Origin: a virus | Lineage: Duplodnaviria; Caudoviricetes | IMG/VR virus record: IMGVR_UViG_3300028923_000001 | Coordinates: 1-53,409 of that record | DNA: 53,409 nucleotides | Strand: one strand, 5' to 3' | Part shown: positions 1-46,571 of the stretch, one piece after another | Layout: every line of letters begins with the position of its first letter | How positions within the stretch are numbered: the stretch's first letter is position 1 | Notes under the pieces: model-generated | Database searches by the model: none | What the model saw: only the letters and a program-made list of their open reading frames with translations | What the model was told of the DNA's origin: nothing | Position numbers and translations under genes: made by a program

Positions 1-3000
1 GGCACAGACATCACGCCCTTCAAGAGCTACACATCTAACAGTTACATGGGAGCCAAGAAGTCAACCTATATCCGCGACCGGATGGTGCAACTCGGCGACG
101 TCGAGGAAAACGCCTACCTGCATTTCTATAACGACACCAAGCTGACCAACTGGAATGGCACTGCCTATGACACGCTGCTGATTCGCGGCACCAACTCGAT
201 GACCATCACCGCCAAGGACTCCGTCAGTCGCGTTCCCAATTCCTATGTCAACTACGTCTTCTACTCCGGGAACACCTACTCCGGCGAGACCCGACTGTCG
301 CCGAACTTCACGAACGCCAAAATGCGTCTGGCCTACAAAGAGTATATCACCCAGGCTTTCAATAGCCAGCGCCTGACGCATTGGCCGACGATGACTGGCT
401 ACTGGGACGGCATCTACTTCGACAACTACAACCCCGTTGCCATGCAGGGGGGACGACTCGCCTCCGGCGGCTTGGTTGTCGAGACCGGCACCAGCCCCAG
501 CAGCCTGCTGACCTTCGGAACGGACACCTATGCGGCCTGGGGGTGGAACTGGATGAAGGTTTTCGGACGCGAGGTTCACGATACCCTGAAGACGTCGGCA
601 CAGTGGTCGGCTGACGGACAGAGGAAGGTACTGGCGTACAACGTCGGCATCAGCTTCAAGACGGAATACATGTATCCGGACTCCTCCGGAGCGGATGCCT
701 TCAACTACGAATTCGCTTTTGATCCCGTATCCTGTGCCAACAACAGCTACTATCGTTTGGAGAATCTCCATACGCGGGATTCTATCGCAACCCTCAATGG
801 CGCGACCTTCTTCTGGTGCTCTCGCCCGCGTACCGATCTGGTCACCAAGCGGCAGTCGATCTACAACAACCTCTGCTTTTACTATGCCGCCCGAACAGAT
901 TCCACCTGGATTTACATGCGCCCTGAACCGGGAAACGCTTATGGCGCCTTTCTGAATACCGGTTTTGACACTCTGTCCTGGATAACGGCGATGGAGTATG
1001 ATATCGGTTCACCGCTCGGCCATTACCAGCTTGCTGCGTCCGGTACCTCCCCCGACATGAGCGGGGCACAATACAAAGTCTGGATGCGGGACTATCAGGG
1101 AGCGCGAGTCTATACTCGTCCCAAGGATCACATTGACGCCTCGGTTTGGGGTTCGACCTCCACTCCGGTCACCGTCGACCTGGGTGGCTCGTACAAGCAA
1201 CTTCTCCCCGACGGAACCTTCGGTTCGGTAGTCACCTCGATTTCGTTACGATCCACTGAGGGCGCCATTATGATTCCGGTCAGCGTCGGCGCCTGTACCA
1301 CTCCGCCGACGGTGCCGACGTTCAGCAGTCCAGCCGACAACGCCACGGTGACATCACGCACGCCCAGCCTCTGCGTGGTCAATTCGACGCAGTCGGGTAC
1401 CTGCACGCAGCCGATCGTCTACCATTTTCAGGTTTCGGCGGCATCGAGTTTCAGCACGATCGTCTCCGAAGACAGTTCAGTGTCCCAGGGTTCATCGACA
1501 ACCTGTTGGACGGTGGGGACGACACTTAATCCCGGACAGCTGTACTACTGGCGGGTACGCGCGGGCAATGGCACCTCCTGGTCCAGCTGGTCTTCTGCTC
1601 GTCGCTTTGTGACGCCCAACAACGTCCCGACGGTGCCGACACCCTCGTCACCGGCCAACGGTGCCACGATCACTGTGGTCCAGCCCACCTTAACGGTGAC
1701 GAACTCGACCGACGCCGACGGCACGACTCCGTCATATCATTTTCAGGTTTCCACCACTTCTGGTTTCACAGCCATCGCCGCTGAGAATGCGTCAGTGGCT
1801 CAGGGCTCAGGTACCACCAGTTGGGTGGTCAGTTCGGCTCTGAGTAATCTGACCACCTACTATTGGCGCGTGCGCGCCTATGACGGTATAGCCTATTCAA
1901 GCTGGAGCAGTACGCGTTCCTTCTACGTCAACCAGCCGGTGGCAAACAACCCGCCGACGGTCCCGACCCTTTCGGCTCCCGCCAATGGCGCCACGATGAC
2001 ATCGCTGCAACCGACTCTGGTGATCGTGAATTCGACTGATCCCGAGGGTACAACACCCATCTATCATTTCCAACTGTCGACCCTGTCCAGCTTCTCGACG
2101 ATCGCCGTCGAGAATCTCTCCGTGATACAGGGGCAGACGACGACAACCTGGCAGGTCACGCCGGCACTCAACAACCTGACGACCTACTACTGGCGCGTGC
2201 GCGCCTCTGACGGACAGGCATACTCCAATTGGAGCAGCACACGATCGTTCTACGTAAATCAGACGGGCGCCAACAGCCCGCCGTCGATGCCCGTCTGCAG
2301 TTCGCCGAAAAACGCCACCAAGGTCACCAGCCTGATTCCCGATCTGTCCGTCGTCAACTCGACTGACGTCGATGGCGATCCACTGACCTATCAATTTGAG
2401 ATCTATAATTCCACCTTCTCGACGTTGATCGCGCAGTCGTCCATGGTTGCTCAGGGGAGCGGGACGACGACGTGGCAGGTTCCGGTGACCCTGTCGCAGA
2501 AGACGGTCTACGTGTGGCGCGCTCGCGCCTACGATTCCCAGAACTGGTCGAACTGGATGACACTGGCCAGCTTCCGCACCAATCGTCCACCGATCACGCC
2601 GGTGCCCCGCGCGCCGGTACAGGATACCGTTTTCGGGTCAGTGCATGTGCTGGTGACGTACAACACGACGGATCCCGATGACGACACGCTTACCTATGAT
2701 TTCCGCGTCTTCTCGGATTCTCTGCTGACCAAGCAGGTCGAAATCGGTTTGGCGATACCACAGGGGACGAATTACACGTCTTTCACGACTGCGGCCACTT
2801 ACACCAACAACAAGCCATACTGGTGGCGCGTGCGGGCCTATGATGGCGGCGCCTGGTGCAACTGGAGCGATCCCGTGGAATTCTGGCACCTGGATATGGC
2901 GCTTGATGTAACCGACGCGCCGACTCTGGTGAAGCCCGCAGATGGGTCAGTCGAAACCGACATGACACCGGAATTCCAGATCACGTGGTCGGGAAGCGGC

Positions 3001-3447
3001 TCGTCGACCTGTCAGTTCGAGTTGGCAGACGATGCCAATTTCACCACCGTTGTTGATGGAGGATCGGCCAGTGGAGACAACGGGTCCGCCGTCTGGACCG
3101 TCTACCGATCTCTGGAAAACGGCCGGACATACTATTGGCGCGCCAAACGAGAGGGTGGCGGCTACTCTCAGACTGCTGCTTTCTCCGTCAGTGCGAATAT
3201 CTTCCTTTCGCCGGTTCCCTTCTCCTATCTTGACGGCGCTATCACCATTCACACTCTCCCGTCCGGGTCGCGATTTGAAGTCTACACCCCCTCCGGGGAC
3301 AAAGTCGTCGAACTGGACAATCTGAGCGGAGACTACTCCTGGAACGTCCTCAACTCCCGAGGCGAGAAACTGGGGTCGGGCGTGTTCCTCTATTACATCC
3401 GCTTCGACGACAAGACGGTGGCTGACAAATTCATCGTTGTCAGATAG
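1..3447 (+). CDS. Host secreted protein (5'-partial): putative GHL15-like glycoside hydrolase domain, about six FN3/Ig-like repeats, T9SS/FlgD-like C-terminal sorting domain
   Basis: Frame open from base 1. DGIYFDN and KVWMRDYQGARVYTRP motifs. Repeats of PPTVPTxSxPANGAT...YHFQVS...YYWRVRAYDG..WSxWS. C-terminus SPVPF...VYTPSGDKV...WNVLNSRGEKLGSGVFLY...KFIVVR. Confidence 0.75.
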   Translation, partial: GTDITPFKSYTSNSYMGAKKSTYIRDRMVQLGDVEENAYLHFYNDTKLTNWNGTAYDTLLIRGTNSMTITAKDSVSRVPNSYVNYVFYSGNTYSGETRLSPNFTNAKMRLAYKEYITQAFNSQRLTHWPTMTGYWDGIYFDNYNPVAMQGGRLASGGLVVETGTSPSSLLTFGTDTYAAWGWNWMKVFGREVHDTLKTSAQWSADGQRKVLAYNVGISFKTEYMYPDSSGADAFNYEFAFDPVSCANNSYYRLENLHTRDSIATLNGATFFWCSRPRTDLVTKRQSIYNNLCFYYAARTDSTWIYMRPEPGNAYGAFLNTGFDTLSWITAMEYDIGSPLGHYQLAASGTSPDMSGAQYKVWMRDYQGARVYTRPKDHIDASVWGSTSTPVTVDLGGSYKQLLPDGTFGSVVTSISLRSTEGAIMIPVSVGACTTPPTVPTFSSPADNATVTSRTPSLCVVNSTQSGTCTQPIVYHFQVSAASSFSTIVSEDSSVSQGSSTTCWTVGTTLNPGQLYYWRVRAGNGTSWSSWSSARRFVTPNNVPTVPTPSSPANGATITVVQPTLTVTNSTDADGTTPSYHFQVSTTSGFTAIAAENASVAQGSGTTSWVVSSALSNLTTYYWRVRAYDGIAYSSWSSTRSFYVNQPVANNPPTVPTLSAPANGATMTSLQPTLVIVNSTDPEGTTPIYHFQLSTLSSFSTIAVENLSVIQGQTTTTWQVTPALNNLTTYYWRVRASDGQAYSNWSSTRSFYVNQTGANSPPSMPVCSSPKNATKVTSLIPDLSVVNSTDVDGDPLTYQFEIYNSTFSTLIAQSSMVAQGSGTTTWQVPVTLSQKTVYVWRARAYDSQNWSNWMTLASFRTNRPPITPVPRAPVQDTVFGSVHVLVTYNTTDPDDDTLTYDFRVFSDSLLTKQVEIGLAIPQGTNYTSFTTAATYTNNKPYWWRVRAYDGGAWCNWSDPVEFWHLDMALDVTDAPTLVKPADGSVETDMTPEFQITWSGSGSSTCQFELADDANFTTVVDGGSASGDNGSAVWTVYRSLENGRTYYWRAKREGGGYSQTAAFSVSANIFLSPVPFSYLDGAITIHTLPSGSRFEVYTPSGDKVVELDNLSGDYSWNVLNSRGEKLGSGVFLYYIRFDDKTVADKFIVVR

Positions 3448-4351: not shown

Positions 4352-4424
4352 GCCGGTGTAACTCAGCTGGTAGAGTAGCTGATTTGTAATCAGCCTGTCG
4401 TAGGTTCGAGTCCTATCACCGGCT
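4352..4424 (+). tRNA. tRNA-Thr(TGT); probable prophage attachment site
   Basis: Acceptor stem GCCGGTG/CACCGGC, D-arm CTCAGCTGGTAGAG, anticodon arm GCTGA-TTTGTAA-TCAGC, T-loop GGTTCGAGTCC; CCA not encoded. Confidence 0.96.
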
Positions 4425-4552
4425 CATTGTGCGACAAAGGGTTGGCTCTGTCCGACAATGACTTTGAGAGATTGAGAATCTGATCCGGACAGGGGCAGAA
4501 AGGGGGTTGATGGGGGTTACAGGGGGTAGAGCTATGCGAAAATTGTGCGAAA

Positions 4553-5566
4553 TCAATCGGGGAGGGATTCGACAAGTTGGCGCTGGAAATCGGCGTCGGG
4601 GTGGATGTAGACGCGATCGGCGAGCCCCTGCGTCAGGTGTCCGAGCGCCGTGGCGATATGCTTGGGTTGTGGGTGAGCCGTCGACCGGGCGACGCGCGAA
4701 GCAAAGGTGTGGCGGAAATCATGAAACCGACAGGGCATACCGAGACGGGTGCGAAGATCCACGAACTTGTTGCTGATGTTGTCAATTCTGGGACAACGAG
4801 CACCGGATTCGGAGAGAAAACGAATAGCCTCCCGGGCAGATTTGTTAAGATAGCGGACATCGGATTTGCGGCTTTTGGTGACTCCGGCAGGAAAGAGAGC
4901 GATGGCGGCGCGGAGATCGACCGTCGCCCAGTCTCCTGACCAGAGCCAGTGAATCTCGCCCCGGCGCATGCCGGTCTGATAGGCGAGCTCGAGGATGGCG
5001 GCAAAGATCGGGTCGGTGTTGAGTTTCAGGAGATCGACTTCCTGACGGGTGAAGATGTGCGGCTCGGATTTCCTGATCTCGCGATAGCGATCAACATCAG
5101 CAGCCGGACGATGCGCCATCATGCCGGAGCGCCGGCAGAAGCGGCAAAAGTCGGAGATGATCGAGAGATAACGGTTGCGGCTGGAGGCGGATATCGGCAA
5201 ATCATCAAGCCAGGACTGAATCGTGCGCGCCGTGATCTGGTTGAGGGTTTCGATTTTGCGATCGGCCGCGAAACGGAGGAGCTGATGGTGTTTTTGGAAG
5301 AGAGTCCGGGGTGTTTCGGAATCGGATTCGCAGTGAGCCAGGTACTCCCGCAGAGCGCGAGTGAAGGAGCGGCCATCGGATTGTGCCGGCGAATGGAGGA
5401 GTTTGAAGATCTCGAGGGCGAAGGACTCGGCACTGCGTTTGGTGAGAATCGGGAGCAGGCGTTCGCCGGTGAGTTCCGCCCAGAGTTTGTGAACCGGACG
5501 GTGGATGCGCGATTTGCCGGAACCGTCGGTATAGTAATAGCAGTTATCACGTTTGTGGCAGCGCAT
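4553..5566 (-). CDS. int: Tyrosine recombinase / phage integrase
   Basis: Catalytic motifs TGMRRGEI, TKS, HDFRH, LGH and Tyr in VYIH. Confidence 0.95.
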   Translation of the reverse strand: MRCHKRDNCYYYTDGSGKSRIHRPVHKLWAELTGERLLPILTKRSAESFALEIFKLLHSPAQSDGRSFTRALREYLAHCESDSETPRTLFQKHHQLLRFAADRKIETLNQITARTIQSWLDDLPISASSRNRYLSIISDFCRFCRRSGMMAHRPAADVDRYREIRKSEPHIFTRQEVDLLKLNTDPIFAAILELAYQTGMRRGEIHWLWSGDWATVDLRAAIALFPAGVTKSRKSDVRYLNKSAREAIRFLSESGARCPRIDNISNKFVDLRTRLGMPCRFHDFRHTFASRVARSTAHPQPKHIATALGHLTQGLADRVYIHPDADFQRQLVESLPD

Positions 5567-5885: not shown

Positions 5886-6007
5886 TGTTCGGTCATGACC
5901 CCGGCAATCCAGATTACGAAGAACAAAAACAGAATGCCGACGACCATGACAATGTAGAACACAACGGGACTATTCAACAGGTTTGCGATCCAACGGCGGC
6001 GAGCCAA
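5882..6007 (-). CDS. 41-aa single-TM peptide (not in ORF track)
   Basis: GGAGGA RBS, TTG start, MARRRWIANLLNSPVVFYIVMVVGILFLFFVIWIAGVMTEQ, ATGA coupling to the next gene. Confidence 0.5.
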   Translation of the reverse strand: MARRRWIANLLNSPVVFYIVMVVGILFLFFVIWIAGVMTEQ

Positions 6008-6126
6008 GCCGTTCCTCCAATCTCGTCATAAGCCAGCGAATAAGCGAGATCAGCACGGTGGTTTGTTGATCTTCAGACATGATAATTCCTCCCCTGTTCC
6101 AGATGGATTAGTAGTACAGCATAGGT

Positions 6127-6567
6127 CTAGCCTCCACGATTACCGCCGCTGGCGAAGGCCTCGATGATGCGGCCCAGCGATGCTCGTTCGTTTGGGTTCA
6201 GGGTGATCAGGGTGGTCATGATTTTCTGCAAATCGGGATCGAGATCGGGAGCGGTGGCTCCGTATTTGGCCAAGACGGCGTCAAGAAGCTCGCGGATCTG
6301 ACGAATGTCGTGTGGTTCGGTTTCCTGGCCGGTGAGAAGCCAGTCGATGGAGACGCCAAGAACCTCACGGAGGCCGATGAGGACTTCGGACTTGGGGAGC
6401 GATTTGCCGGAAAAATAGGCACCAAGGGCTTCGTGAGTGATGTAGTAGCCTGATTTCTTCATCGCCTGGGCGAGACTCACTCGCGTTTTGAATCCCTTCC
6501 TCTCCATTGCTTCCCCGAGTCTGCCCGCGATGGCCGTGCGATCCGTTTTGGCCTTACGCATGATCAA
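6127..6567 (-). CDS. XRE-family HTH repressor (cI-like)
   Basis: IAGRLGEAM...SLAQAM...LGAYFSGKSLPKSEVLIGLREVLGVSIDWLLTG; divergent from the early operon. Confidence 0.9.
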   Translation of the reverse strand: MIMRKAKTDRTAIAGRLGEAMERKGFKTRVSLAQAMKKSGYYITHEALGAYFSGKSLPKSEVLIGLREVLGVSIDWLLTGQETEPHDIRQIRELLDAVLAKYGATAPDLDPDLQKIMTTLITLNPNERASLGRIIEAFASGGNRGG

Positions 6568-6574
6568 GTTTCCA

Positions 6575-6672
6575 TCAAACCTATCTTAAGGGTGTTGACT
6601 GTCAAGCGATTAGAAGAAAAGTTAAAAATAATGAAAAAAACATCTTGACAAAGTAATATGACTTCATATTTT
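6575..6672. promoter_or_regulatory. Divergent lysis/lysogeny promoter-operator region
   Basis: AT-rich. Rightward TTGACA(6645)-16-TATTTT with inverted repeat AATATGA-CT-TCATATT (6655-6670) over spacer and -10. Palindrome TTGACTGTCAA (6595-6605) gives a leftward TTGACA-16-TAGGTT. Confidence 0.6.
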
Positions 6673-6702
6673 GCCGACAGTGATAGAAGGTGTGTTGAAG
6701 CA

Positions 6703-6891
6703 ATGGAAAATAACTTGACTTGGTTTAAGACGGTAAAACTCAGACAAAACGGCGAGACCGGTATGGAGGTAACAATGCCTCCAGCGGCGATTCGGGAAGC
6801 TGGAGTTGAACTCGGTGAGGAATTGGATGTGTTTGTGAATCGCGAGACCAAGGACATCGTGTTTCGCAAGCATGAACCGGTGGCGGCATGA
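6703..6891 (+). CDS. AbrB/MazE/SpoVT-family DNA-binding protein at the cro position
   Basis: VKLRQNG..MEVTMPPAAIREAGVELGEELDVFV...IVFRK swapped-hairpin pattern. Confidence 0.75.
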   Translation: MENNLTWFKTVKLRQNGETGMEVTMPPAAIREAGVELGEELDVFVNRETKDIVFRKHEPVAA

Positions 6892-7088
6892 GCGAGTACA
6901 TGACGGTGGCCGAGGTGATGGAGCGCTGGCACAAGCGCGACCTGAAGAGTTTCTACGAGAAGTGGCTGCCGCTGTTCCGCGGAGTGCGCAAGATCGGGAG
7001 GTACTTGATCCCCACGAGCGAAGTGATCAGGGTGGAAAAAGAACATCGGACGACTCCGGGTAAGCCATCCGTGGCGGGTTCGCAATGA
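6888..7088 (+). CDS. Excisionase-like HTH protein
   Basis: YMTVAEV...GVRKIGRYLIPTSEV pattern; ATGA-coupled to the AbrB-like gene. Confidence 0.65.
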   Translation: MSEYMTVAEVMERWHKRDLKSFYEKWLPLFRGVRKIGRYLIPTSEVIRVEKEHRTTPGKPSVAGSQ

Positions 7089-7509
7089 AGATAATGCACA
7101 AATGGGCAATGTCAAGAGAAAAGGAGAGTGCGTGGACAGAATAATCACAGATCGGCAGGTTGACCGGGCGATCGCGCGAGTGAACGGACCGGTGATTCGA
7201 CTGGCGCTGAAGAAGCGGTGGCTGGCGATCAGGTACGGAGTCAGGAAGTCTGCAGGCGCCAAATGACCGAGCAACAGAACTTTGATTTCTGGGAAGGATT
7301 TGCGGCAGTGAGCATTGTCAGTGCGCTGATGGCGCTGGCGTTGACGTTGGCGCCGGTTTTCGCGCAGGCACAAGGAGGAATCAGATGAGATTGATATTTC
7401 CGTGGTTGCTGCCGCTGGTGCAGTTGCTCGGTTGGCCGGCATTCGGAACGACGATCGACAAGCGGTACATGCTTGGACACGATCCGACGGTGTGCGGAGG
7501 ACCGGAGTT

Positions 7510-7824
7510 GTGATCGTCGAGAAGCCACGCGGTGGTGAGTTTCGGTTTCGGCTCGATCGCGATGAGTTGCAACTCGGAGCGCGCGAGTTTTTCGAAGAGA
7601 TCAAGCAGGCTATACCGGGGCGGTGTCGCCGATACGATCCCCAAGCACGGATCTGGACCGTAAGCGATATCTTTCTTCCAGTAGTTCTAGACAAGCTCGC
7701 ATATCATTTCCCTCCAACTGAACCGCAATTATGCGAGGTCGGAGCACTGTCCCGGTTTGTCGTGAGAAAGAAGAGAGGGCGCACAGCCGTGCGCCCCTAC
7801 GGTGGAACAAGGGTGGTGGCGTGA
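7510..7824 (+). CDS. Hypothetical protein, possibly HARP/DUF5710-like
   Basis: EEIKQAIPGRCRRYDPQARIWTV; GTG 7510 overlaps the stop of a small upstream ORF. Confidence 0.4.
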   Translation: MIVEKPRGGEFRFRLDRDELQLGAREFFEEIKQAIPGRCRRYDPQARIWTVSDIFLPVVLDKLAYHFPPTEPQLCEVGALSRFVVRKKRGRTAVRPYGGTRVVA

Positions 7825-8008
7825 TGGACTGGAGATTCGTGACATCGGAGATCGCGATACAAACGGTGGTCGTTTGTTTCCTGATGGCGTTCGCGATTGC
7901 GTTGTGCGTGTGGACGATCAGGAAGGACAGGAAAAGACACACCCCTTTATCCCCTCTCAAGAGGGGAATAACAGCACCTGACAGCACCTGGAAAAGGATG
8001 ATACGGGG

Positions 8009-8278
8009 ATGACGGAGACGGAGGTTGAACGAGTTCTTCGCAACGGCTATTACTGCGAGGGTCACTTGATTCCACTGAATCCGAGTGGCAAATGCGGAAT
8101 TTGTGAGGGAGCTCCATGGAAAGAGGACTGGCAGCCCGATGTGTCATTGATGCAGTATCTGCTGCTGAAAGGAATCGACCAATTTCCCAAGATTGGATTT
8201 TCTACCGAACAGATCAGGGCAAAACTGAGATCGACTTATAGGGCGATTGAAATGGGAGAATATTGGGATTTGTTATAG
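8009..8278 (+). CDS. Hypothetical protein with possible Zn site
   Basis: CEGH...CGIC; ATGA-coupled to the upstream ORF. Confidence 0.45.
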   Translation: MTETEVERVLRNGYYCEGHLIPLNPSGKCGICEGAPWKEDWQPDVSLMQYLLLKGIDQFPKIGFSTEQIRAKLRSTYRAIEMGEYWDLL

Positions 8279-8490
8279 CGGGTTTAAGGCCATTGGCGCG
8301 CAAGTGCATCTCGGAGTTCCTGCCCCCCTCTCCGAGTTCGGTGGGTCGATGGCCTTCCCGGTTAAATGAAGCGGTGCACGCCGACGTACACCAGGCACGA
8401 AAATAACCCCACCCGCTGGGTGGGGTACGAGTGAAATCAAAGTAACGCCCTGGGTGCAGGGAGAGCAGATAACGGTTTTCAAGGAGAGAA
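8275..8490 (+). repeat. 216-bp direct repeat, copy 1 (structured leader plus RBS)
   Basis: Reads identical to 8995-9210, offset 720 bp. Confidence 0.97.
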
Positions 8491-8491
8491 A

Positions 8492-8932
8492 ATGGAAGAT
8501 CAATCAGACAATCAGAATGAAGCGATGAAGCAGGAAGGTCGGCCATCGGTAATGGCGGCTGACATAGCCGCTCCGGGAGCAGCAGCACCAGTCGGGGTCC
8601 CGGGACCGAATGCAGGTAAACCTGGGGATTTGTCAGAGGTACATGCGGCTGCAGAAGGATTGTCTTGGCAATTCTGTCACGTAACGAAAGCAGATCCGCA
8701 TGGCGTGAAATTCTACATCCAGCACGGACCGATCAAAGAGGTCGGGGTAAATGGTTGCCAGATCGATGAGGTGATTAAGTTTTCACGGAACTTCATCATG
8801 AATGCAAACCACCGGTTCCCGTGCGATGAGAATATCGACGCAATCACGCATCTGGGAATGGCAATCGAGGCACTGGAGCGTCGTAAGGCCAATCGTGAGG
8901 CGCGCGGAGTGGAAGGGACGGATCAGCTTTAA
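8492..8932 (+). CDS. Tad1-like anti-defence sponge protein
   Basis: IQHGPIKEVGVNG...FPCDENIDAITHLGMAIEALERRKANREARGVEGT matches the Tad1 pattern FQxG...GV...F.SREN..A.T..EEA..W...R..DR..R.V.GT as I recall it. Confidence 0.8.
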   Translation: MEDQSDNQNEAMKQEGRPSVMAADIAAPGAAAPVGVPGPNAGKPGDLSEVHAAAEGLSWQFCHVTKADPHGVKFYIQHGPIKEVGVNGCQIDEVIKFSRNFIMNANHRFPCDENIDAITHLGMAIEALERRKANREARGVEGTDQL

Positions 8933-8994
8933 TCGTGTGCGCGGCGCACGAGGGCGTACGCCGCGCACGGTGATATCTGGAGAAGGATGATGAG

Positions 8995-9210
8995 ATAGCG
9001 GGTTTAAGGCCATTGGCGCGCAAGTGCATCTCGGAGTTCCTGCCCCCCTCTCCGAGTTCGGTGGGTCGATGGCCTTCCCGGTTAAATGAAGCGGTGCACG
9101 CCGACGTACACCAGGCACGAAAATAACCCCACCCGCTGGGTGGGGTACGAGTGAAATCAAAGTAACGCCCTGGGTGCAGGGAGAGCAGATAACGGTTTTC
9201 AAGGAGAGAA
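8995..9210 (+). repeat. 216-bp direct repeat, copy 2
   Basis: Reads identical to 8275-8490. Confidence 0.97.
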
Positions 9211-9212
9211 GA

Positions 9213-9539
9213 ATGCCAGACAAACAACTACCAGGTAAGATAGCTACGATTCGGGGGGAGGGAAGGCCAGAGAATAAACCGACGACCGTCACACTAGCGA
9301 TGATTCGTGTAGGTGCGGAGACGGTCGAAAAGAAGCAGGCGGAACTTGTCTCTTCACTCCGCCAAATTCTCGCGCACTTGTGTGGTTCGAATCCCGCACC
9401 CACATCTGAAGTTTCTCAACCTCAGCCCGGCGAGTTGGGTCAGGTTGGCGCAATTCTGGCTAACATCATGTGCGACGTAGACATGGCAAGAGCCATTGGC
9501 ATGGATATTGCGATGCTGCTCTCAGTGAAAGAGCAATAA
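9213..9539 (+). CDS. Hypothetical helical protein; candidate anti-defence factor
   Basis: ATG follows the AAGGAG RBS of repeat copy 2; lies between two sponge-like genes. Confidence 0.6.
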   Translation: MPDKQLPGKIATIRGEGRPENKPTTVTLAMIRVGAETVEKKQAELVSSLRQILAHLCGSNPAPTSEVSQPQPGELGQVGAILANIMCDVDMARAIGMDIAMLLSVKEQ

Positions 9540-9557
9540 CGGTTTCAGGGAGAGAAA

Positions 9558-9905
9558 ATGGAAGATCAGACTGACAACCAGAATGAAGCGTTGGCGGGTG
9601 CGCAGGGAGGTCGGCTATCGGCAACATGGAAATATCCAATCTCAGAAGAGGATGCGCAGGAGATCGAGCGCATCTTCTGCCGGATTTATGGGAAGAATCA
9701 GGACCAAATGCTGCGGGTCGAACTGATCAGAGAGGCGGCACGCAAACTTGTCATAACAATCGTGGCAAGCAGCCCGGCTTGCAGTGACCGGACTGCGGCG
9801 ATTCGGAAGGTCCGTGAAGCGATGATGACAGCCATCGCTGCAATCGAAGTTTGGGAACATCCGTTTTACGCGGAAGGAGTGAACGCCCCGGGGCATTTGA
9901 GTTGA
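9558..9905 (+). CDS. Acb2/Tad1 hairpin-domain-like protein
   Basis: IERIF...DQMLRVELIREAARKLVITIVASSPACSDRTAAIRKVREAMMTAIAAI fits the F.YH....Q...y..IR.aAk.la..i....P.s.dr..A..kl.EA.M.anAaI helical-hairpin family. Confidence 0.65.
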   Translation: MEDQTDNQNEALAGAQGGRLSATWKYPISEEDAQEIERIFCRIYGKNQDQMLRVELIREAARKLVITIVASSPACSDRTAAIRKVREAMMTAIAAIEVWEHPFYAEGVNAPGHLS

Positions 9906-10107
9906 GTTATGACGGTGACGGTGGTCTGAGGCTATTCAGAAAGTCGGTAAAACCGGACGTACGCCGGAAGCCACGAACGTGCATGTTAATCAAGAGGAAG
10001 TTTCTGGTGACCTGCATAAGTAGAGGTTGAGCCAAACCGGTCACTGTTGGGCCACCGCACCAGGTTAAATAGAGGCAGGGACGCACGAGCGTCAAAGGAG
10101 TGACGAA

Positions 10108-10920
10108 GTGTTAGTGTACGATGTAGAGACGTTGAGGACTCCAGAAGAGGTTTGTCCGGAGGATCCGGTAAAGGGATGGCAGAATCCGGTGGCAATGGGA
10201 TTTGGTTCGGCAGTGGTCTATGACTACCGGACGGACAGGTACTACTGTTTCATGACGGCGGAACGGCAACAGCTGATCGAAATGCTGTTCGGTCGATTCG
10301 TGGTCAGCTTTAACGGAATCAAGTTCGACAACAGGGTGGCACTTGAAGGCAGGTGCGAAGAAACTCAGGAACTGTCGACGCCGTGGCTGAATTACGATCT
10401 GCTGCTGGAGGTGGTGAGGGCGAAATTCCAGGTGGCCTCGGTACGAGAGGCGGAGTTGCAGTACGGTGCGATGAATGTGCATGACGGCACGATCGGGTTG
10501 GACGGACTGGCGCACGGGACGCTCGGGATGCGCGAGACGGGACACGGGTCGAAATCGCCGCTTTTGATCAGAGAAGGCAAATGGGGCGAACTCTTCGCCT
10601 ATAACCTGCATGACGTCAGGCTGACGCGGAAGTTGCTCGACTTCCTGATGCGGTACGGATATCTGATCGATCGCGGTGGATTCAAGATCGAGATCGAGGT
10701 CCCGGAGTGGGTCAGGAAAGAGTATCTGGGAACGCAGTGCGGTTGTGGGCGCGGAAACGCCGAGGTTCATTGCGGTGGATTATCGACCGCTCGCGCGGGT
10801 CTGGTGCAGTCTGTTCGGGAGATTCAAAGTCCTGGAGTTCCGGAGAAATTCACTTTCGCGGATAGTCCGTCTGAGAGCGGCAATCCCGATTGTGGATTTG
10901 CGGAGGATCTTCAGCCGTGA
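10108..10920 (+). CDS. DEDD / RNase H-like 3'-5' exonuclease (YprB-like)
   Basis: VYDVET, SFNGIKFD, LDGLA..TLG, YNLHDV motifs. Confidence 0.8.
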   Translation: MLVYDVETLRTPEEVCPEDPVKGWQNPVAMGFGSAVVYDYRTDRYYCFMTAERQQLIEMLFGRFVVSFNGIKFDNRVALEGRCEETQELSTPWLNYDLLLEVVRAKFQVASVREAELQYGAMNVHDGTIGLDGLAHGTLGMRETGHGSKSPLLIREGKWGELFAYNLHDVRLTRKLLDFLMRYGYLIDRGGFKIEIEVPEWVRKEYLGTQCGCGRGNAEVHCGGLSTARAGLVQSVREIQSPGVPEKFTFADSPSESGNPDCGFAEDLQP

Positions 10921-11424
10921 AGATCGCGACGTTGAGGAGAGTGGCGCCGGTGCAGGAACCTCCCGATCTGAGGAGGTGGAGTTACTGGTTGACACGGTGT
11001 CGGCGGCATCATGTACCGTACGGCAGGCAGTATGTGACCTGCAGCAGGAAGTGGCGTGAGGCGGCGGTGATGATGGTTGGCGGCTTTCCGGTGCGATTTC
11101 GGATGTTCGTGGCGGACAAGGTGGTGGTGGGATGCTCGAATTACCATCGGGAGCGAGCGCTGAAGAGGGATGATTTGTTGATTCAGATCATCCAGGCGGA
11201 CCGGTGGACGCAGCGGCTTTGCAAGGAAGTGGCGGATTTCACGACTGACTGGCTGGTATTGCGGGATGGTCGGGTCGTGATGGTCGCCGGCGGTCCGGCG
11301 CATACCAGGGATGGTGGCGCCGGATCGTGTTGTTTCAGGCCCGGCGAAGTTGCCGGGATAGCGATGGAGGATAGGAATGGCGTTTGAATTTGCAGACTCA
11401 GTGGTTGCTGAGAGGAGGAATCCA

Positions 11425-11637
11425 ATGGCAGATGATTTGGAGTTTCAGGCGAGCATCGACGGATTTCGCATGGTGCATGTGAAGATCGCGAAGGACGAGT
11501 ACCTGCCCGTCTACAAGATGGTGGTGACGGTGCCGGCGAGTTCGATCAAGGATGTAAACCGGTTGATCGGGCACGTTCGCAACGGCTGTTTCATCACGAT
11601 GGCAGAACATCAGACCGGATTGCCACTGGGTGAGTGA
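11425..11637 (+). CDS. Hypothetical protein
   Basis: GAGGAGG RBS before MADDLEFQAS; coupled to the next gene. Confidence 0.5.
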   Translation: MADDLEFQASIDGFRMVHVKIAKDEYLPVYKMVVTVPASSIKDVNRLIGHVRNGCFITMAEHQTGLPLGE

Positions 11638-12641
11638 TGGCTGACACGAAGATTGAGTGGGCGACGAAGGTCTGGAATCCGGTGACCGGGTGCAAGCGCG
11701 TGAGTCCGGGGTGTGACAATTGCTATGCGATCAGGCAGAGTCATCGGTTTAGTGGGTTCAAGGGGTCGAAGTTTGAGGGAGTGACGAAGAATATCTATAT
11801 GCACGACCAGGTGGTCAACAAGATAGTTCAAGGAGTCGATTGGTCGGGGGTGGTCAGGTGTCACGAGAGGTTGCTTGAGTTGCCATTCGGGTGGGCAAAG
11901 CCGCAGCGGATTTTTGTAAACAGCATGAGCGATCTGTTCCACGATGATGTGCCCGAAGAGTTCATTTTCAAGGTCTGGAAGACGATGCTTCAGAGTCCGG
12001 GGCATACCTACATGATTCTGACCAAGCGGCCGCAACGGATGAAGGTGGTGGTCAAAAAGATAGTGATCTCGATGCGAGATTGGTTGGCCGAACAATATAC
12101 GTCGCTCAGGGCGATTCCTGGCGTGCCGTGGCGGAATGTGTGGCTCGGGGTGAGTTGCGAGAATCAGGCAATGGCGGACCAGCGGATCCCGCATCTGCTG
12201 AATACGCCGGCAGCAGTGAGGTTCGTGAGTTGCGAGCCGATGCTGGGGGGGATTGACTTGAATAAGAGGGAATTGTTGTGCAAGACGTGGTCCGAAGGCG
12301 GTGCCACTATTGGAACGTACCTCGACTGGGTGATTTGTGGTGGTGAATCGGGACCCAAGGCGCGACCGATGCACCCGGATTGGGTGAGGTCGGTACGGGA
12401 TCAGTGCGTGGCTACGAGTGTGCCGTTTTTCTTTAAGCAACATGGGGAATGGTTACATGAGAGCCAGGTGTTCGATAGCGGCTACTCGCTTGACCAATTC
12501 AACGATAAATGCAGATCTGATGGTTTTGCGCGTGTCGGGAAGAAGGTTGCGGGTCGGTTGCTGGATGGTCGGGAGTGGAATGAGTTTCCGCGGCAAGCGG
12601 GCACGTTGCAACGTGCCCCTACGGAGAAGGTGAGAGGATGA
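11634..12641 (+). CDS. Phage Gp37/Gp68 (DUF5131) family protein
   Basis: TKIEW...WNPVTGCKRVSPGCDNCYA, IFVNSMSDLFH, LTKRP, WLGVSCENQ, DWVICGGESG, FFFKQHG, GRLLDGREWNEFP. Confidence 0.93.
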   Translation: MMADTKIEWATKVWNPVTGCKRVSPGCDNCYAIRQSHRFSGFKGSKFEGVTKNIYMHDQVVNKIVQGVDWSGVVRCHERLLELPFGWAKPQRIFVNSMSDLFHDDVPEEFIFKVWKTMLQSPGHTYMILTKRPQRMKVVVKKIVISMRDWLAEQYTSLRAIPGVPWRNVWLGVSCENQAMADQRIPHLLNTPAAVRFVSCEPMLGGIDLNKRELLCKTWSEGGATIGTYLDWVICGGESGPKARPMHPDWVRSVRDQCVATSVPFFFKQHGEWLHESQVFDSGYSLDQFNDKCRSDGFARVGKKVAGRLLDGREWNEFPRQAGTLQRAPTEKVRG

Positions 12642-14190: not shown

Positions 14191-14991
14191 GTGGCGACGA
14201 CTCCGTACGGTAGGATAGCGCGGAAGACGCATAAGGACCGGAGATTCAAGGCACTGTGCCGCGAAGACCGGGATTTCCTGAAATACGTCTGGTCATGCGA
14301 GGAAGCCGACGGGAGTCCAGGACTGTTTCGGTTGACCATCATGGAGATCGTCGAAACCTGTGAGTGTACCGATCCCGAAACGGTTGAGGCAACGGTATTG
14401 GGAACGGTTATCGCAACGGTTCGGGAACGGTTGAAGAGACTGACGGAACAGGGTTGGATCGAGTACGATTTCGAGGCCAAGATGATGTTTTGTCCGAAAT
14501 GGCACCAGTTCGACCCGCCGGCGAATGGAAATGTGGTGATCGCGATGCTGAATCGGGCTTTGAATTTCCCAGAGACAGGACTCTTCCTCAGCAAGGGCGG
14601 GAAAGTATTGGCCCAAGAGGTAAAGAGGTTTCCAACTCCGCGAGTCTGTGCGGGTCTTCGATCGAGCGGGTCGAATCGGACGGAGTTTTATCGGGTGATG
14701 TTTCCGACACCGAATACCAGCAACTCGACGGGAGCGGGAGAGCACGGAGACGGGGGACTGAACCTACAAACAGCGGTGAAGATGCTGCCAACACCACAGT
14801 CGAGGGATTGGAAGGACACCAGTCAACGAGCGAGTCACGGGAACACGACGGATTGTCTGCCGAATGCAATTGGTGGTCAACTGAACCCGACGTGGGTAGA
14901 GTGGCTAATGGGGTGGCCTTTAGGGTGGACAGACTTAGAGCCCTTGGAAATGGATGGGTTCCGCAAGTGGTTAAGAGAATTCTTGAGGTGA
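14191..14991 (+). CDS. Chimera: phage replication-protein-like N-terminus fused to a C5-methyltransferase beta-chain-like C-terminus
   Basis: N-part DRRFKAL...GLFRL...GWIEYD...PKWHQFDPPANGNV; C-part three PTP repeats and GGQLNPTWVEWLMGWPLGWTD. Confidence 0.6.
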   Translation: MATTPYGRIARKTHKDRRFKALCREDRDFLKYVWSCEEADGSPGLFRLTIMEIVETCECTDPETVEATVLGTVIATVRERLKRLTEQGWIEYDFEAKMMFCPKWHQFDPPANGNVVIAMLNRALNFPETGLFLSKGGKVLAQEVKRFPTPRVCAGLRSSGSNRTEFYRVMFPTPNTSNSTGAGEHGDGGLNLQTAVKMLPTPQSRDWKDTSQRASHGNTTDCLPNAIGGQLNPTWVEWLMGWPLGWTDLEPLEMDGFRKWLREFLR

Positions 14992-20995: not shown

Positions 20996-21213
20996 TAGGC
21001 GAAATATGAAGAGCACAGATAGCAGACGAATCCGAAAAACCCACCCGCTGGGTGGGGTACAGAACGAGTGCTTCATGGTAGGGCGACTGGTTTGTATGCC
21101 GTACTTCGAACTTTACTATGGGCACTTAATGTATCGGACTTCAACGTTTTTCGACAACGGGCAGCACCCCACGATTCTAATACCCATGTGGAATTAGGGA
21201 AAACGGGATTGTG

Positions 21214-29064: not shown

Positions 29065-29710
29065 TTGGATCGAGCTTTACCGATTGATCAGCGCCAATCC
29101 GGACTCGACTCTGGGAGCGAGTCCTCATACGAACGCGCAGATCCGCGTCGCCATGAATGTCGCGCAGAGAGAAATCGCAGCGGCCACCTGCGCAGTGCAA
29201 CGGGAGACGACCTACACTCTCACGGCGAGCGTCTGCTACAAACTGCCGTACCGGTTCATCGCGCCGCGGGCACTGTATCTGATCAGGCCGAACGCCAACG
29301 GTTACGACCGAGTGACGTACCGCGATGCCCAGGAATTTCCCAGTGTGAAAAAACCGGGAGCCGAATTGGCGGGGGAAACGGCCGGGACCAATACCGATCA
29401 ATCCAGGGTCGATTTTGTGACGGAATTTTCGGTGTTTGGGGATTCGCTTAAGATCAATCCCATGCTGGGCGAGGTAACGGGTCACGACTTGCGACTGGAT
29501 TATTGCGCCTATCCCACACCACTGACGAGCGACAGCCAGACCTGCGATTTGCCCGAGTATTGTGATTTCGCGGTGGTCAAATTAGCCGAGTGGATTCTGA
29601 ACTCGGCCAATCTGACAATCACGGAAGAGACGGCAGCGCTGACGAACCTGAGCAGCATGGCGGGGTATTTTGTGGAGCGGTACGCGAGAAAGGTGGAGGC
29701 GGGAAAGTGA
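28976..29710 (+). CDS. Putative head-tail adaptor 2 with N-terminal signal peptide
   Basis: MNVAQREIA...YKLPYRFI...LKINP...LRLDYCAYPTPL...DLPEYCDFAVV adaptor pattern; leader MKSTWRWLVTAVVVALGAWSMSGQCA. Confidence 0.65.
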   Translation: MKSTWRWLVTAVVVALGAWSMSGQCATCGDWIELYRLISANPDSTLGASPHTNAQIRVAMNVAQREIAAATCAVQRETTYTLTASVCYKLPYRFIAPRALYLIRPNANGYDRVTYRDAQEFPSVKKPGAELAGETAGTNTDQSRVDFVTEFSVFGDSLKINPMLGEVTGHDLRLDYCAYPTPLTSDSQTCDLPEYCDFAVVKLAEWILNSANLTITEETAALTNLSSMAGYFVERYARKVEAGK

Positions 29711-30864
29711 TTGAGCTCCATTGCGGAGACTGGGTGCAAGTGCTGAAGACGCTTCCCGACGAGTCTGTCAACTGCGTGGTGACGAGTCCGCCGTACTGGG
29801 GGCTGCGAGACTACGGCATTGCTGGGCAAATCGGACTCGAAAAGACGCCGGAGGAATACGTTGCGAAGATCGTTGCCGGATTCCGTGAGGTCAGGCGGGT
29901 GTTGCGCAAGGACGGGACGTTGTGGTTGAATCTGGGGGATTCGTACGCCGGTTCTGGACGCGGACGTGATGCTGATGGAACTCGAGGTGAAGGACAGGAA
30001 AATACCAAGCAGGGCACGAACCGTGGAGCGATGGCCGGACGCTTGGTGAATACGAAGTCCCTGAGCAAGAATCTTATCGAACAAGGTGCAATCGGGAACG
30101 CATGGGTCAAACCGCCGATGGGTCTCAAGCCGAAAGACTTGTGCATGATACCGGCGCGGATGGCGCTGGCGTTGCAGGCGGATGGTTGGTGGTTGCGGAT
30201 GGATATTATTTGGGCGAAACCGAACCCGATGCCGGAGTCAGTGACCGACAGGCCGACGAAGAGCCACGAATATGTGTTCCTGATGTCGAAGAGCGCGAAG
30301 TATTACTACGACGCGGATGCGATCGCGGAACGGCTTACTGATTCGAGTATCATTCGCCTATCGCAAGATGTTGACGGTCAAGTTGGGTCGGATCGGGTGC
30401 ACGGTAAGACAAACGGCGCAATGAAGGCCGTCTACAAAAAGGAAGGTCGCAACAGCCACTTTCACCAAGACCGAGACCCGCAGCATTCGAGTGAGCGGAA
30501 GCAACGCAAACGCGACGGTACGAATAATGGCAGCGATGGCACGGGATTCCAAACTCACAACGGCAATTCGCTGAACCGGCCAGACGGCAAGCGCAACAAG
30601 CGGTCGGTTTGGACTATTGCCACGCAGGCGATGAAGGAAGCGCACTTTGCGACGTTCCCGGAGAAACTTGTCGAACCGTGCATCCTTGCGGGATGTCCTG
30701 AAGGTGGTGTGGTGCTTGACCCGTTTGCCGGAACCTGTACGGTCGGATTGGTGGCGGCAAGACTCAATCGCAGTTTTATCGGGATCGACCTGAATCCCGA
30801 ATACCTGAAGATGCGGCAGAAGGAGATTGATGCGATTCTCCGGCAGGAACGGATGGCGGTGTGA
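29707..30864 (+). CDS. Beta-class N4-C/N6-A DNA methyltransferase
   Basis: VTSPPYWGLRDY, IIWAKPNPMPES..DRPTKSHEY, HFATFP, VLDPFAG; GTGA overlaps at both ends. Confidence 0.93.
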   Translation: MIELHCGDWVQVLKTLPDESVNCVVTSPPYWGLRDYGIAGQIGLEKTPEEYVAKIVAGFREVRRVLRKDGTLWLNLGDSYAGSGRGRDADGTRGEGQENTKQGTNRGAMAGRLVNTKSLSKNLIEQGAIGNAWVKPPMGLKPKDLCMIPARMALALQADGWWLRMDIIWAKPNPMPESVTDRPTKSHEYVFLMSKSAKYYYDADAIAERLTDSSIIRLSQDVDGQVGSDRVHGKTNGAMKAVYKKEGRNSHFHQDRDPQHSSERKQRKRDGTNNGSDGTGFQTHNGNSLNRPDGKRNKRSVWTIATQAMKEAHFATFPEKLVEPCILAGCPEGGVVLDPFAGTCTVGLVAARLNRSFIGIDLNPEYLKMRQKEIDAILRQERMAV

Positions 30865-36426: not shown

Positions 36427-37479
36427 ATGTCTAAGATGGGAATTGCTCAGGGATTTGCCCGCACAAATCGATTCTCCGATGCCTATATGGAATCGTTGCA
36501 CGATAAGGTACAGAAGCAGCTTCAGGAGCAGGGTTTCGCGAATCGCTCATTGTTGGACCAGCAACAGGATGAGCGGAGGCGAAAGGCCGAAAAGGAAGAT
36601 GCGGCCGATCTGACCAAGCAAACGGAAAAAGCCAACCAGGATGCGATCAACCGGCAGAAGGCGGCGTTTGAGGCTGATGTCAACGCCGATGCGAGTCTGG
36701 ATCCGGCAACGAAATCGCGGGCGTTGGCTCTGAGTGCGCTGGGTACGTCCGAGGGACTCACGAGGGCACAGGCGGTAGTCGATGCAGCCCGGAAGACGGC
36801 TGCGACACCGGCGAAGAGCGACAAGGCGGCGGAATACAAGGACAAGATCGCGGAACTCGGAGGCTGGGAGGCGGCAAAGAAAGCCGATCCGACACTGATT
36901 GCAAAGGCCGAGGTCTACGGGGTCAAGCCGGAAGAAGTGAAGGGGGAGAAGGTACTGGACAGGGATAAGCCGCCCAGTGCTCAGGAAATGATCGATGCGG
37001 CATTAGCACATATCAAGGGACAAAAGGCATCGGCTCAGGCCATAGAGGCGAAGCTTATTGGAGAGCGCGTACCGGCTGAGAAGGCCCATGCAAGTGCAGT
37101 TCGGATCATGGAGTTAGAACCGGACGAGCGGAAGGCGGCTATCAAGTTTTTGCAGAGCGTGTATGGCAAGAAGAATCCGCTAGTAGCGGATAGCATCATC
37201 GCGGATTGGAGTCAGCCGGGGGATTTTGAGATGCCGATTGACCCGAATGCGAATCCGCTTGGTGCAAAATTGGAAACCGCGACGGCGAGGCCAGCAACAG
37301 GGCCAGCCGCTGCGGTGTTGCCAGAAAGGAAACCCACCGCGGTGGGTGGGACACCCGCAAGTCAACCGGAGGCGGCGCCGGCAGGGGAGATATCGAAGGA
37401 AAAGGAAATGTCGCTCTACGAAAAGGAGCGGCAGCTGGATGAGATCCTGAAGAAACTCCGTGAGGAACCGGCAGAGTGA
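36427..37479 (+). CDS. Putative internal virion / ejection protein
   Basis: MGIAQGF start and charged coiled coil; position. Confidence 0.55.
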   Translation: MSKMGIAQGFARTNRFSDAYMESLHDKVQKQLQEQGFANRSLLDQQQDERRRKAEKEDAADLTKQTEKANQDAINRQKAAFEADVNADASLDPATKSRALALSALGTSEGLTRAQAVVDAARKTAATPAKSDKAAEYKDKIAELGGWEAAKKADPTLIAKAEVYGVKPEEVKGEKVLDRDKPPSAQEMIDAALAHIKGQKASAQAIEAKLIGERVPAEKAHASAVRIMELEPDERKAAIKFLQSVYGKKNPLVADSIIADWSQPGDFEMPIDPNANPLGAKLETATARPATGPAAAVLPERKPTAVGGTPASQPEAAPAGEISKEKEMSLYEKERQLDEILKKLREEPAE

Positions 37480-43486: not shown

Positions 43487-43587
43487 AGTGGAAGACGGGC
43501 AGAAGTTTGGTGGCGGCGGGAATCGTGGCAGCAGTCACCGCGGCGATCTGGATGCTCTGGGCGTTACATCAGTTGGTGCAGCCATGA
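43483..43587 (+). CDS. 34-aa TM peptide (not in ORF track)
   Basis: MKWKTGRSLVAAGIVAAVTAAIWMLWALHQLVQP, ATGA-coupled on both sides; supports 43584 as the next start. Confidence 0.5.
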   Translation: MKWKTGRSLVAAGIVAAVTAAIWMLWALHQLVQP

Positions 43588-46567: not shown

Positions 46568-46571
46568 GGGT

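Follow-up and report, generated by a model that had tools for sequence, protein, structure and literature searches.

The window analysed here is the whole 53,409-bp IMG/VR virus record IMGVR_UViG_3300028923_000001 (Caudoviricetes), and its positions 8009-9905 hold four small open reading frames (ORFs) on the plus strand. Two of these, ORF1 and ORF3, are new divergent members of known sponge families, those of Tad1 and Acb2 respectively, in a known type of locus. The interpretation that we favour, and consider moderately probable, is that 8009-9905 is an accessory island in the early operon of a temperate phage, carrying two sponge homologues and assembled by recombination at a leader sequence. 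The ORF1 and ORF3 proteins are homologous to members of these families, two identical copies of the leader precede ORF1 and ORF2, and L169, a metagenome contig related to the early region of the phage, has the same flanking genes without the four ORFs. An earlier note, made from the DNA alone, had described a three-gene cassette; the three small ORFs that it claimed are all present at 8492-8932, 9213-9539, and 9558-9905, but the variable block runs from 8009 to 9905 and has a fourth ORF. The features of the block and its flanks are as follows.

7731-8012, plus strand: o7731, conserved small protein with a hydrophobic stretch, left conserved flank; homologue at 1229-1399 of L169
8009-8278, plus strand: o8009, accessory ORF of 89 amino acids with Cys/His pairs; not in L169
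8275-8490, plus strand: leader copy 1, 216 nucleotides (nt), exact repeat D1; its 5' part is conserved in L169
8492-8932, plus strand: ORF1, 146 amino acids, ATG start, Tad1-family homologue
8951-8998, plus strand: 3'-terminal stump of an o7731-like gene (...WRRMMR, then stop), directly before leader copy 2; repeat D11
8995-9210, plus strand: leader copy 2, 216 nt, identical to copy 1 (D1); about double Logan depth
9213-9539, plus strand: ORF2, 108 amino acids, ORFan, probable helix-loop-helix
9543-9557, plus strand: short linker with a ribosome-binding site (RBS); homologous to the leader's final ~15 nt (D2 alignment)
9558-9905, plus strand: ORF3, 115 amino acids, ATG start, divergent Acb2/Tad1-hairpin protein (PF24729) with N- and C-terminal extensions
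10108-10920, plus strand: o10108, conserved protein of 270 amino acids, right conserved flank; phrog_403, E = 3.9 × 10−5; homologue in L169

Sponge-family homology of ORF1 and ORF3

A phmmer search against PDB chains aligned residues 76-145 of ORF1 with residues 61-131 of the 132 in CmTad1 (8kbb, E = 3.5 × 10−7), and a profile of the ORF1 family (115 sequences) matched 8kbb at E = 1.4 × 10−20 and five CbTad1 sequences at about 2.2 × 10−7. We found 114 other homologues among 5.8 billion proteins, with 42-61% identity over 48-73% of ORF1, the nearest being forms of 121-135 amino acids. By tblastn, 78 cultured-phage records matched ORF1, and a gene of Bacillus phage SPG24 annotated as Tad1 is 42% identical (30/71) to residues 76-145 (BLASTP E = 3 × 10−13). 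Pattern matching in viral contigs gave 227 stretches, 140 of which encode ORF1 relatives; single-sequence scans of viral contigs for ORF1 returned nothing. The match in PHROGs was phrog_2428 (E = 1.2 × 10−16), whose function is unannotated. All 12 residues that are invariant in the family are kept in ORF1 (Q77, P80, E83, G85, N87, G88, Q90, R131, R135, R138, E141, and G142), and the Tad1 motifs named in the earlier note were found as E113-N114..A117.T119 and R131...R135..R138.V140.G142-T143, with slightly different spacing.

The predicted structure points the same way. AlphaFold2 (AF2) modelled residues ~57-146 of ORF1 as a beta-hairpin plus a two-helix hairpin, with a mean predicted local distance difference test score (pLDDT) of 66.7 for the whole protein, 66-78 for the beta-hairpin (63-68/71-75), and 93-98 for the helices (86-108 and 112-137). 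Foldseek ranked Tad1 chains of the PDB in all of places 1-10 (probability 0.95-0.99), and in VIA the hairpin superposed on 7uav_C at 0.8 Å over 50 residues and on 8kbc_A at 0.8 Å over 52 residues. The likeness is limited to the C-terminal ~90 residues. The N-terminal 55 are unrelated to the family and consist of ~20 residues like those that begin ORF3, followed by an Ala/Pro/Gly-rich, low-complexity stretch; the model has one beta-hairpin, not the antiparallel beta-sheet found at the N-terminus of Tad1. Judged by its sequence, ORF1 is a Tad1-family core with a remodelled N-terminus, and we do not file it as a canonical Tad1 because the N-terminal beta-sheet segment is replaced.

Ligand-site residues of CbTad1 and CmTad1 were taken from the available text of Li et al. 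(10.1101/2023.11.15.567273), and their equivalents in ORF1 were inferred through a HMMER alignment. According to that text, the pocket for glycocyclic ADP-ribose (gcADPR) and 2',3'-cyclic GMP-AMP (cGAMP) involves F82, N92, R109, and R113 of CbTad1, and cyclic trinucleotides bind at R88/T95 of CmTad1 and R90/T97 of CbTad1 (10.1101/2023.11.15.567273). Three of the four mutation-tested residues of the gcADPR/cGAMP pocket are kept in ORF1, as N114 (114/115 family members), R131 (115/115), and R135 (115/115). The site for cyclic trinucleotides such as cyclic tri-adenylate (cA3) is incomplete (D112, T119): the Thr is kept, and in place of the Arg stands an Asp, at a position where 50 of the 115 members have Arg and 9 have Asp. 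As this site varies within the family, it would serve as a marker of specificity rather than of membership, and of the two sites ORF1 probably forms only the main Tad1 pocket. We propose that ORF1 oligomerises and sequesters a gcADPR-type signal of Thoeris and/or a cyclic dinucleotide, in a pocket that would include N114, R131, and R135; Tad1 itself is a ligand-sequestering homo-hexamer, built as a trimer of dimers. No binding of cyclic trinucleotides is predicted, because the phosphate-binding Arg is Asp112; for Acb2 of phage T4, the available text reports that an Asp at the equivalent of this Arg goes with no cA3 binding (PMC10312549). The earlier description of ORF1 as Tad1-like is thus upheld by homology, but for the C-terminal part only and not at the cA3-binding Arg.

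Two side observations were made on this family. The ORF1 family profile also matched the C-terminal 75 residues of gp184 (8y6v_I, 230 amino acids; E = 2.1 × 10−11), and a Tad1-like hairpin thus also makes up the C-terminal domain of one larger phage protein. The family alignment (A2) contains two near-invariant cysteines, C89 in NGCQ (114/115) and C111 in FPC (100/115), only the second of which is present in the aligned stretch of CmTad1; CmTad1 binds a Zn ion according to a figure legend of Li et al. (10.1101/2023.11.15.567273).

ORF3 scored 22.5 bits (E = 1.3 × 10−4) on Pfam PF24729 (Acb2/Tad1 hairpin), for which the cut-off is 27 bits. A search of 5.8 billion proteins gave just two further homologues, P0003 and P0004 (47-51% identity, E = 5 × 10−7 and 2 × 10−6), which scored 53.3 and 34.1 bits on PF24729; since ORF3 falls below the cut-off and its nearest homologues above it, its membership rests on transitive homology. 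ORF3 also matched phrog_1454 (E = 3.3 × 10−8), eight viral loci encode further relatives of 65-80 amino acids, and an alignment of 10 sequences contains an invariant KVREAMM helix that ORF3 keeps. ESM Atlas features linked ORF3 to a PF24729 cluster at 0.91 (29 of its 30 hits belong to that set), and its structure match gave template modelling (TM) scores of 0.62/0.76. The AF2 model (mean pLDDT 73.8) has antiparallel helices at 48-71 and 76-99 (pLDDT 90-95), and a fold search of BFVD gave proteins named as Acb2/Tad1 hairpin (PF24729) in 7 of its ten best matches and 12 of its 20 best (best E = 6.8 × 10−3). The evidence that ORF3 is a divergent Acb2/Tad1-hairpin protein is moderate but consistent, and the earlier assignment to this group agrees with Pfam, the homologues, ESM Atlas, and BFVD but not with the PDB fold search. 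Sequence searches of the PDB with ORF3 by phmmer and with a 3-sequence profile were rejected as chance hits only, one of which was a summed-repeat TAL-effector artefact.

As a helical hairpin of the Acb2 family, in which nucleotides are sequestered by a homo-hexamer, ORF3 would form an oligomeric sponge. For its ligand contacts, the comparison sites were Y11/K26 and R67/T74 of PaMx33 Acb2 and T4-V7, K19, and K55 of Acb2 homolog 43 (Acb2_43). The available text of Hadary et al. reports that Acb2_43 binds 3'-cyclic ADP-ribose (3'cADPR) through its N-terminal strand, with ligand-contact residues T4-V7 in beta1, to which the Y-H motif of the ORF3 family corresponds in our alignment (10.1101/2025.08.24.671296). 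The family sequences aligned with the Acb2_43 contacts are F-x-Y-H-x-P and I-R-x-A-A. ORF3 reads R-I-Y-G-K, shifted by one residue, and retains R58. ORF3 could not be aligned to PaMx33 residues Y11, K26, R67, and T74 with the tools used. Because ORF3 departs from its closest relatives in the N-terminal ligand-contact motif, the sequence does not reveal its ligand.

Alternatives for ORF2 and for the sponge homologues

ORF2, counted here from the ATG at 9213 (the longest reading begins at a GTG at 9174), matched no family in Pfam, PHROGs, or NCBIfam, and found only itself among 5.8 billion clustered proteins; viral contigs, cultured phages, and all the fetched loci likewise yielded no relative. 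When phmmer was run over 1.84 billion representatives, the sole matches were two tandem-repeat proteins, P0120 and P0121, which we rejected as artefacts matched by summed weak repeats, and a PDB match to uS13 was judged to be chance (E = 0.0078 for the whole sequence, 0.11 for the stretch). Against the ORF1 and ORF3 family profiles, hhalign gave a probability of 0.1%. The codon score of ORF2 (−0.027) lies under the 5th percentile (0.08) of the long-gene windows of this phage, and its ESM Atlas model, helical and of low confidence (pLDDT 0.58), resembles generic helical hairpins, with a best feature score of 0.88 that falls below the 0.9 bar. These results would be expected if ORF2 were not a counter-defence gene at all, being either a spurious or very young frame in a spacer or a gene with an unrelated early role, for instance in regulation or host takeover. 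We consider this rather unlikely. ORF2 follows a full leader and has a AAGGAGAG RBS 5-6 nt ahead of its ATG, like ORF1; its frame is the best of six by a margin of at least 0.29 (−0.027 vs −0.32 or lower); the GC contents of its three codon positions (GC1/2/3 = 0.62/0.44/0.53, GC1 > GC3 > GC2) are gene-like and resemble those of ORF1 and ORF3; and it ends 18 nt before ORF3. Furthermore, anti-signalling hotspots hold proteins without a recognisable fold: in the hotspot of Migulavirinae (N4-like) Pseudomonas phages, the available text describes gp59 (Acb4-Sequestin), Bes1, and Bes2, and each of the three genes is reported to counter signalling defences (10.64898/2026.06.04.730250). ORF2 encodes a mildly acidic protein (isoelectric point 5.8) and is probably a genuine gene, either young or evolving fast. 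Its anti-defence role is guilt by association, neither supported nor refuted; ORF2 and o8009 may be passengers, and for either of them such a role rests on position only.

A second alternative is that ORF1 and ORF3 are decaying or re-purposed relics, either inert or binding another ligand or partner, so that no known Thoeris or CBASS signal is sequestered; recombination would have replaced the N-terminal sheet of ORF1 and altered the ligand-contact motif of ORF3. A number of observations tell against the reading that we favour, and several of them are what decay would leave. In ORF1, the family's N-terminal MALETL...IGGF segment is missing, the 55 unrelated N-terminal residues are modelled as disordered (pLDDT < 50 over 8-45), and the equivalent of CbTad1 F82 is Ala105, the sole Ala among 115 members (83 Leu, 23 Phe). 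The change to Asp112, with its precedent in T4 Acb2, also fits a relic. Because the terminal branch of ORF1 is long (0.63 vs a median of 0.16), its function may have changed or been lost. None of its Foldseek E values to Tad1 (0.026-0.21) is 0.001 or lower, and its VIA Z scores for Tad1 (6.3-6.5) are tied with those of unrelated hairpins; membership in the Tad1 family therefore rests on sequence. In ORF3, which has the sub-threshold Pfam score given above, two near-invariant columns are changed (K46 for Pro, I93 for Asn), and the Tyr is shifted by one residue relative to the Y-H-x-P of the family. The ORF3 family profile matched only Acb2_43 (9ptq) in the PDB, at E = 0.064. Foldseek against the PDB was non-specific for ORF3, with 7uq2_A at rank 25 (E = 3.6), and the VIA match (Z 6.3, root-mean-square deviation 3.5 Å over 60 residues) was tied with generic helical proteins; the PDB fold search is uninformative here because a helical hairpin is too common to discriminate. 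A comparison of the ORF3 and ORF1 families by hhalign gave no link (probability 4.4%). The pairing of a Tad1-like with an Acb2-like gene is not conserved elsewhere, occurring within ~4 kb in 0 of 88 related loci. Finally, the host searches led to no assignment, and that the host carries Thoeris or CBASS would be an assumption.

Set against decay, the frames of ORF1 and ORF3 are both intact, with codon scores like those of genes (0.158 and 0.212, vs an off-frame 95th percentile of −0.20), and ORF1 keeps every invariant residue of its family. Natural family members of 87 amino acids also do without the N-terminal segment and are found on up to 12 contigs, and ORF3 retains the invariant KVREAMM helix. 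We regard the relic alternative as improbable and retain the reading of 8009-9905 as an accessory island with two sponge homologues.

Island anatomy and the duplicated leader

A 21-nt palindrome within the leader led to 63 metagenome contigs, two of which, L169 and L219, are relatives of the early region of this phage. L169 carries homologues of o6888, o7102, o7402, and o7731. The last of these (1229-1399) ends in ...WKRMMR and its stop directly before a leader, the 5' part of which follows right after the stop and is 90% identical to 8279-8367 (~70 nt at 100%). A shortened leader tail comes next, and ~140 nt later stands the o10108 homologue (1675-2391, 76.5% nucleotide identity); o8009, ORF1, ORF2, and ORF3 are absent. 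Because L169 has the same flanks without these genes, 8009-9905 is a variable accessory insert between conserved genes, apparently built by recombination at the leader. The stump at 8951-8998 corresponds in alignment to L169 1353-1400, where the o7731 homologue has its true 3' end. In viral contigs, o10108 as a query found no close phage relatives. For o8009, whose stop codon falls within leader copy 1, there was no match in Pfam, PHROGs, or NCBIfam and no relative in any fetched locus; its N-terminal region has a C-x2-H...C-x2-C pattern.

The two leader copies, 8275-8490 and 8995-9210, form a 216-nt direct repeat of 100% identity (family D1), and both end at a AAGGAGAGAA ribosome-binding site just ahead of a start codon, that of ORF1 or ORF2. 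ORF1 and ORF3 have in common ~20 nt upstream, ATAACGGTTT(T)CA(A/G)GGAGAGAAAATG, which includes the RBS, and about the first 66 coding nt (~20 codons) with one 6-nt indel; the repeat in these 5' regions (family D2) spans 51 nt at 88% identity. Both proteins start with MEDQ[S/T]DNQNEA because of this shared coding sequence. For both shared patterns 0 matches were expected (100 shuffles), and chance therefore does not explain them. The "related leader/RBS" of the earlier note was borne out and, for ORF1 and ORF2, understated, the leader being identical over 216 nt; ORF3 shares less of it. We propose that joins occurred at the leader/RBS and at the 3' end of o7731, and that every cargo gene either brought this same leader along or was fused at it. 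Joining at the leader would have left the 216-nt exact duplication, the stump of the upstream gene, and the common 5' end of ORF1 and ORF3.

The leader is predicted to fold into a 5' stem-loop (8279-8372), two middle hairpins, one of which is the 21-nt palindrome (8408-8428), and a small hairpin, followed by the RBS. The fold of the whole leader is unexceptional (z = −1.64; 13 of 200 shuffles fold equally well), and a sigma-70 scan of it found no promoter. The 5' stem-loop by itself has a predicted energy of −41.4 kcal/mol (z about −3.0), reached by 1 of 200 mononucleotide shuffles. When the stem-loop (8279-8372 and 8999-9092) was compared with L169 1401-1494, ~70 nt were identical, whereas neighbouring coding DNA is only 69-77% identical, and two changes in the 5' arm of the L169 stem-loop preserve base pairing. 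This conservation, which rests on two sequences (this phage and L169), is suggestive of a functional RNA or DNA element, for example a regulatory RNA or a protein-binding site. A 57-nt query from the leader stem-loop and the 21-nt hairpin found no close phage relatives in viral contigs, an Rfam scan of 6000-11000 gave nothing at E ≤ 1, and no RNA data set is listed as holding the stretch.

A bolder proposal is that the leader is a mobile regulatory cassette that stacks counter-defence cargo, that ORF2 founds a new anti-signalling family (a helical-hairpin sponge or a Bes2-like non-sponge inhibitor), and that the 20-codon N-terminus common to ORF1 and ORF3 is a functional tag and not a scar; we hold this to be a long shot. 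The idea that the tandem leader-ORF1-leader-ORF2 is an assembly artefact, merging two strain variants with different cargo, draws on an exact repeat that exceeds assembler k-mers, on the single run that contains the sequence, and on the fact that no read spans the whole unit, but we judge it very improbable, as the Logan unitig of exactly 8275-8490 has a depth of 27.7, about the sum of two passes (left flank 15.4, right flank 13.1, ORF1 piece 10.6), the ORF1 unitig (8461-9024) runs on its left into the repeat's 3' end and on its right into the repeat's 5' start, so that repeat-ORF1-repeat must exist, and the o7731 stump gives the junction before copy 2 a distinct sequence. In Logan, one public run contains the stretch, a sediment metagenome that probably represents the sample from which the record came, and the unitigs of this run, not independent of the record, fit a real tandem repeat-ORF1-repeat. 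Logan contigs contained no joint that skips ORF1, although contigs cannot reveal rare variants.

The 21-nt palindromic hairpin (7-nt arms, 3-nt loop, plus GTAC) was also observed elsewhere. Exact copies occur four times on the plus strand of the window (0 expected), at 8408-8428, 9128-9148, 21040-21060, and 38410-38430, and the 63 metagenome contigs (loci L163-L225, up to 698 kb) carry it with unrelated flanks, making 74 copies including those of the window. Tandem copies occur, and upstream of many copies, at ~40 nt, there is a CAGGTGGG-like half-site. One of the window copies is located within an ORF of 1816 amino acids (37476-42926) and is translated through as ...HPLGGVQ...; in L169, a copy makes the C-terminus of the o6888 homologue. 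The hairpin looks like an element of the repetitive extragenic palindromic (REP) kind, or a miniature mobile one, that belongs to a sediment lineage and its phages.

Comparison with known systems and genomic setting

ORF1 shares with Tad1 (CmTad1 8KBB-8KBD; CbTad1 7UAV/7UAW/8KBE-H) a homologous region of residues ~72-146, the two-helix hairpin, the C-terminal R...R..RGVEGT loop, the equivalents of N92/R109/R113, and the Thr of the cA3 site (T119). It differs in the 55 low-complexity residues that replace the N-terminal sheet segment, in the Ala at the F82 position, and in the Asp at the cA3-site Arg (R88 in CmTad1, R90 in CbTad1). With Acb2 (PaMx33 8H2J, T4 Vs.4 7UQ2, Acb2_43 9PTQ; PF24729), ORF3 has in common two long antiparallel helices; its close homologues are bona fide PF24729 proteins, its best PDB sequence match is Acb2_43, and its viral fold matches are mostly PF24729. 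Unlike these proteins, ORF3 scores below the Pfam cut-off, has extensions of 38 residues at the N-terminus and 18 at the C-terminus, and has changes in the Y-H-x-P motif and at the near-invariant Asn.

As a locus, the block resembles the Migulavirinae hotspot, as far as the available text describes it, in that adjacent small non-essential genes there include a known sponge beside proteins without a recognisable fold (10.64898/2026.06.04.730250). The sponge families and the phage type (temperate here) are different, the genes here are joined by a duplicated leader, and the present island is known from its sequence alone. Temperate lifestyle genes lie just upstream, as described below. In T4-type phages, a repeated promoter/stem-loop intergenic sequence, PeSL, reportedly flanks small variable ORFs in a plastic region, and shuffling by recombination is said to have been proposed. 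Stacking mediated by the leader would resemble these PeSL cassettes, which the available texts describe as mobile regulatory cassettes with modular shuffling (PMC2839356, PMC4122927). The leader differs from PeSL in being 216 nt long, occurring twice in the window, having no promoter by the sigma-70 scan, and belonging to an unrelated phage, and its mobility is deduced from one relative only.

Sponge proteins reveal which immune signals the host of a phage uses, and divergent members have revealed new ligands; for example, Acb2 homologues that bind 3'cADPR are reported in the available text of Hadary et al. (10.1101/2025.08.24.671296). ORF1, a naturally N-terminally remodelled Tad1 core, offers a test of how much of Tad1 a pocket needs. 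ORF3, as an atypical Acb2 relative, and ORF2, as an ORFan where counter-defence genes accumulate, are further leads, and the window would illustrate how an island grows by recombination at a conserved leader. The known picture is unchanged unless ORF2 or the leader proves functional.

The record is classed as linear, with a CheckV completeness of 58. A tRNA-Thr (4352-4425) is followed by a tyrosine integrase (4553-5566, minus strand) and a CI-like helix-turn-helix repressor (6127-6567, minus strand), all upstream of the island, and the plus strand carries nearly all genes past the repressor, among them those for replication, methylase, virion, and tail fibre. The sponge-gene region sits in this rightward operon ~1.5-3.5 kb downstream of the CI-like repressor, a position from which its genes would be expressed early. 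The right-flank gene o10108 has a weak match to a DNA polymerase exonuclease subunit (phrog_403, E = 3.9 × 10−5). NCBIfam gave nothing for 9 proteins of the region, and megablast of 7000-12000 against cultured phages found no match. In the host search, the 3' half of the phage tRNA-Thr had zero exact matches in genome contigs, and relatives of the phage's DUF5131 gene were spread over many phyla, the best (54% identity) being in an Ignavibacteria metagenome-assembled genome; none of them carries the cassette genes.

Two observations concern the rest of the record. The first ORF (1-3447) runs off the left end and has tail-type Ig domains (Tip attachment protein J second Ig, Rha78A-like Ig) that resemble the tail genes at the right end (43488-51686). 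Rather than a prophage with a host flank, the record probably represents a phage genome that is circularly permuted or wrapped. The phage has the DUF5131 (Gp37/Gp68-like) gene (Pfam E = 1.8 × 10−96) and two DNA methyltransferase-like genes (at 11634-12641, 14191-14991, and 29590-30864 for the three), and the latter two may be further, anti-restriction equipment.

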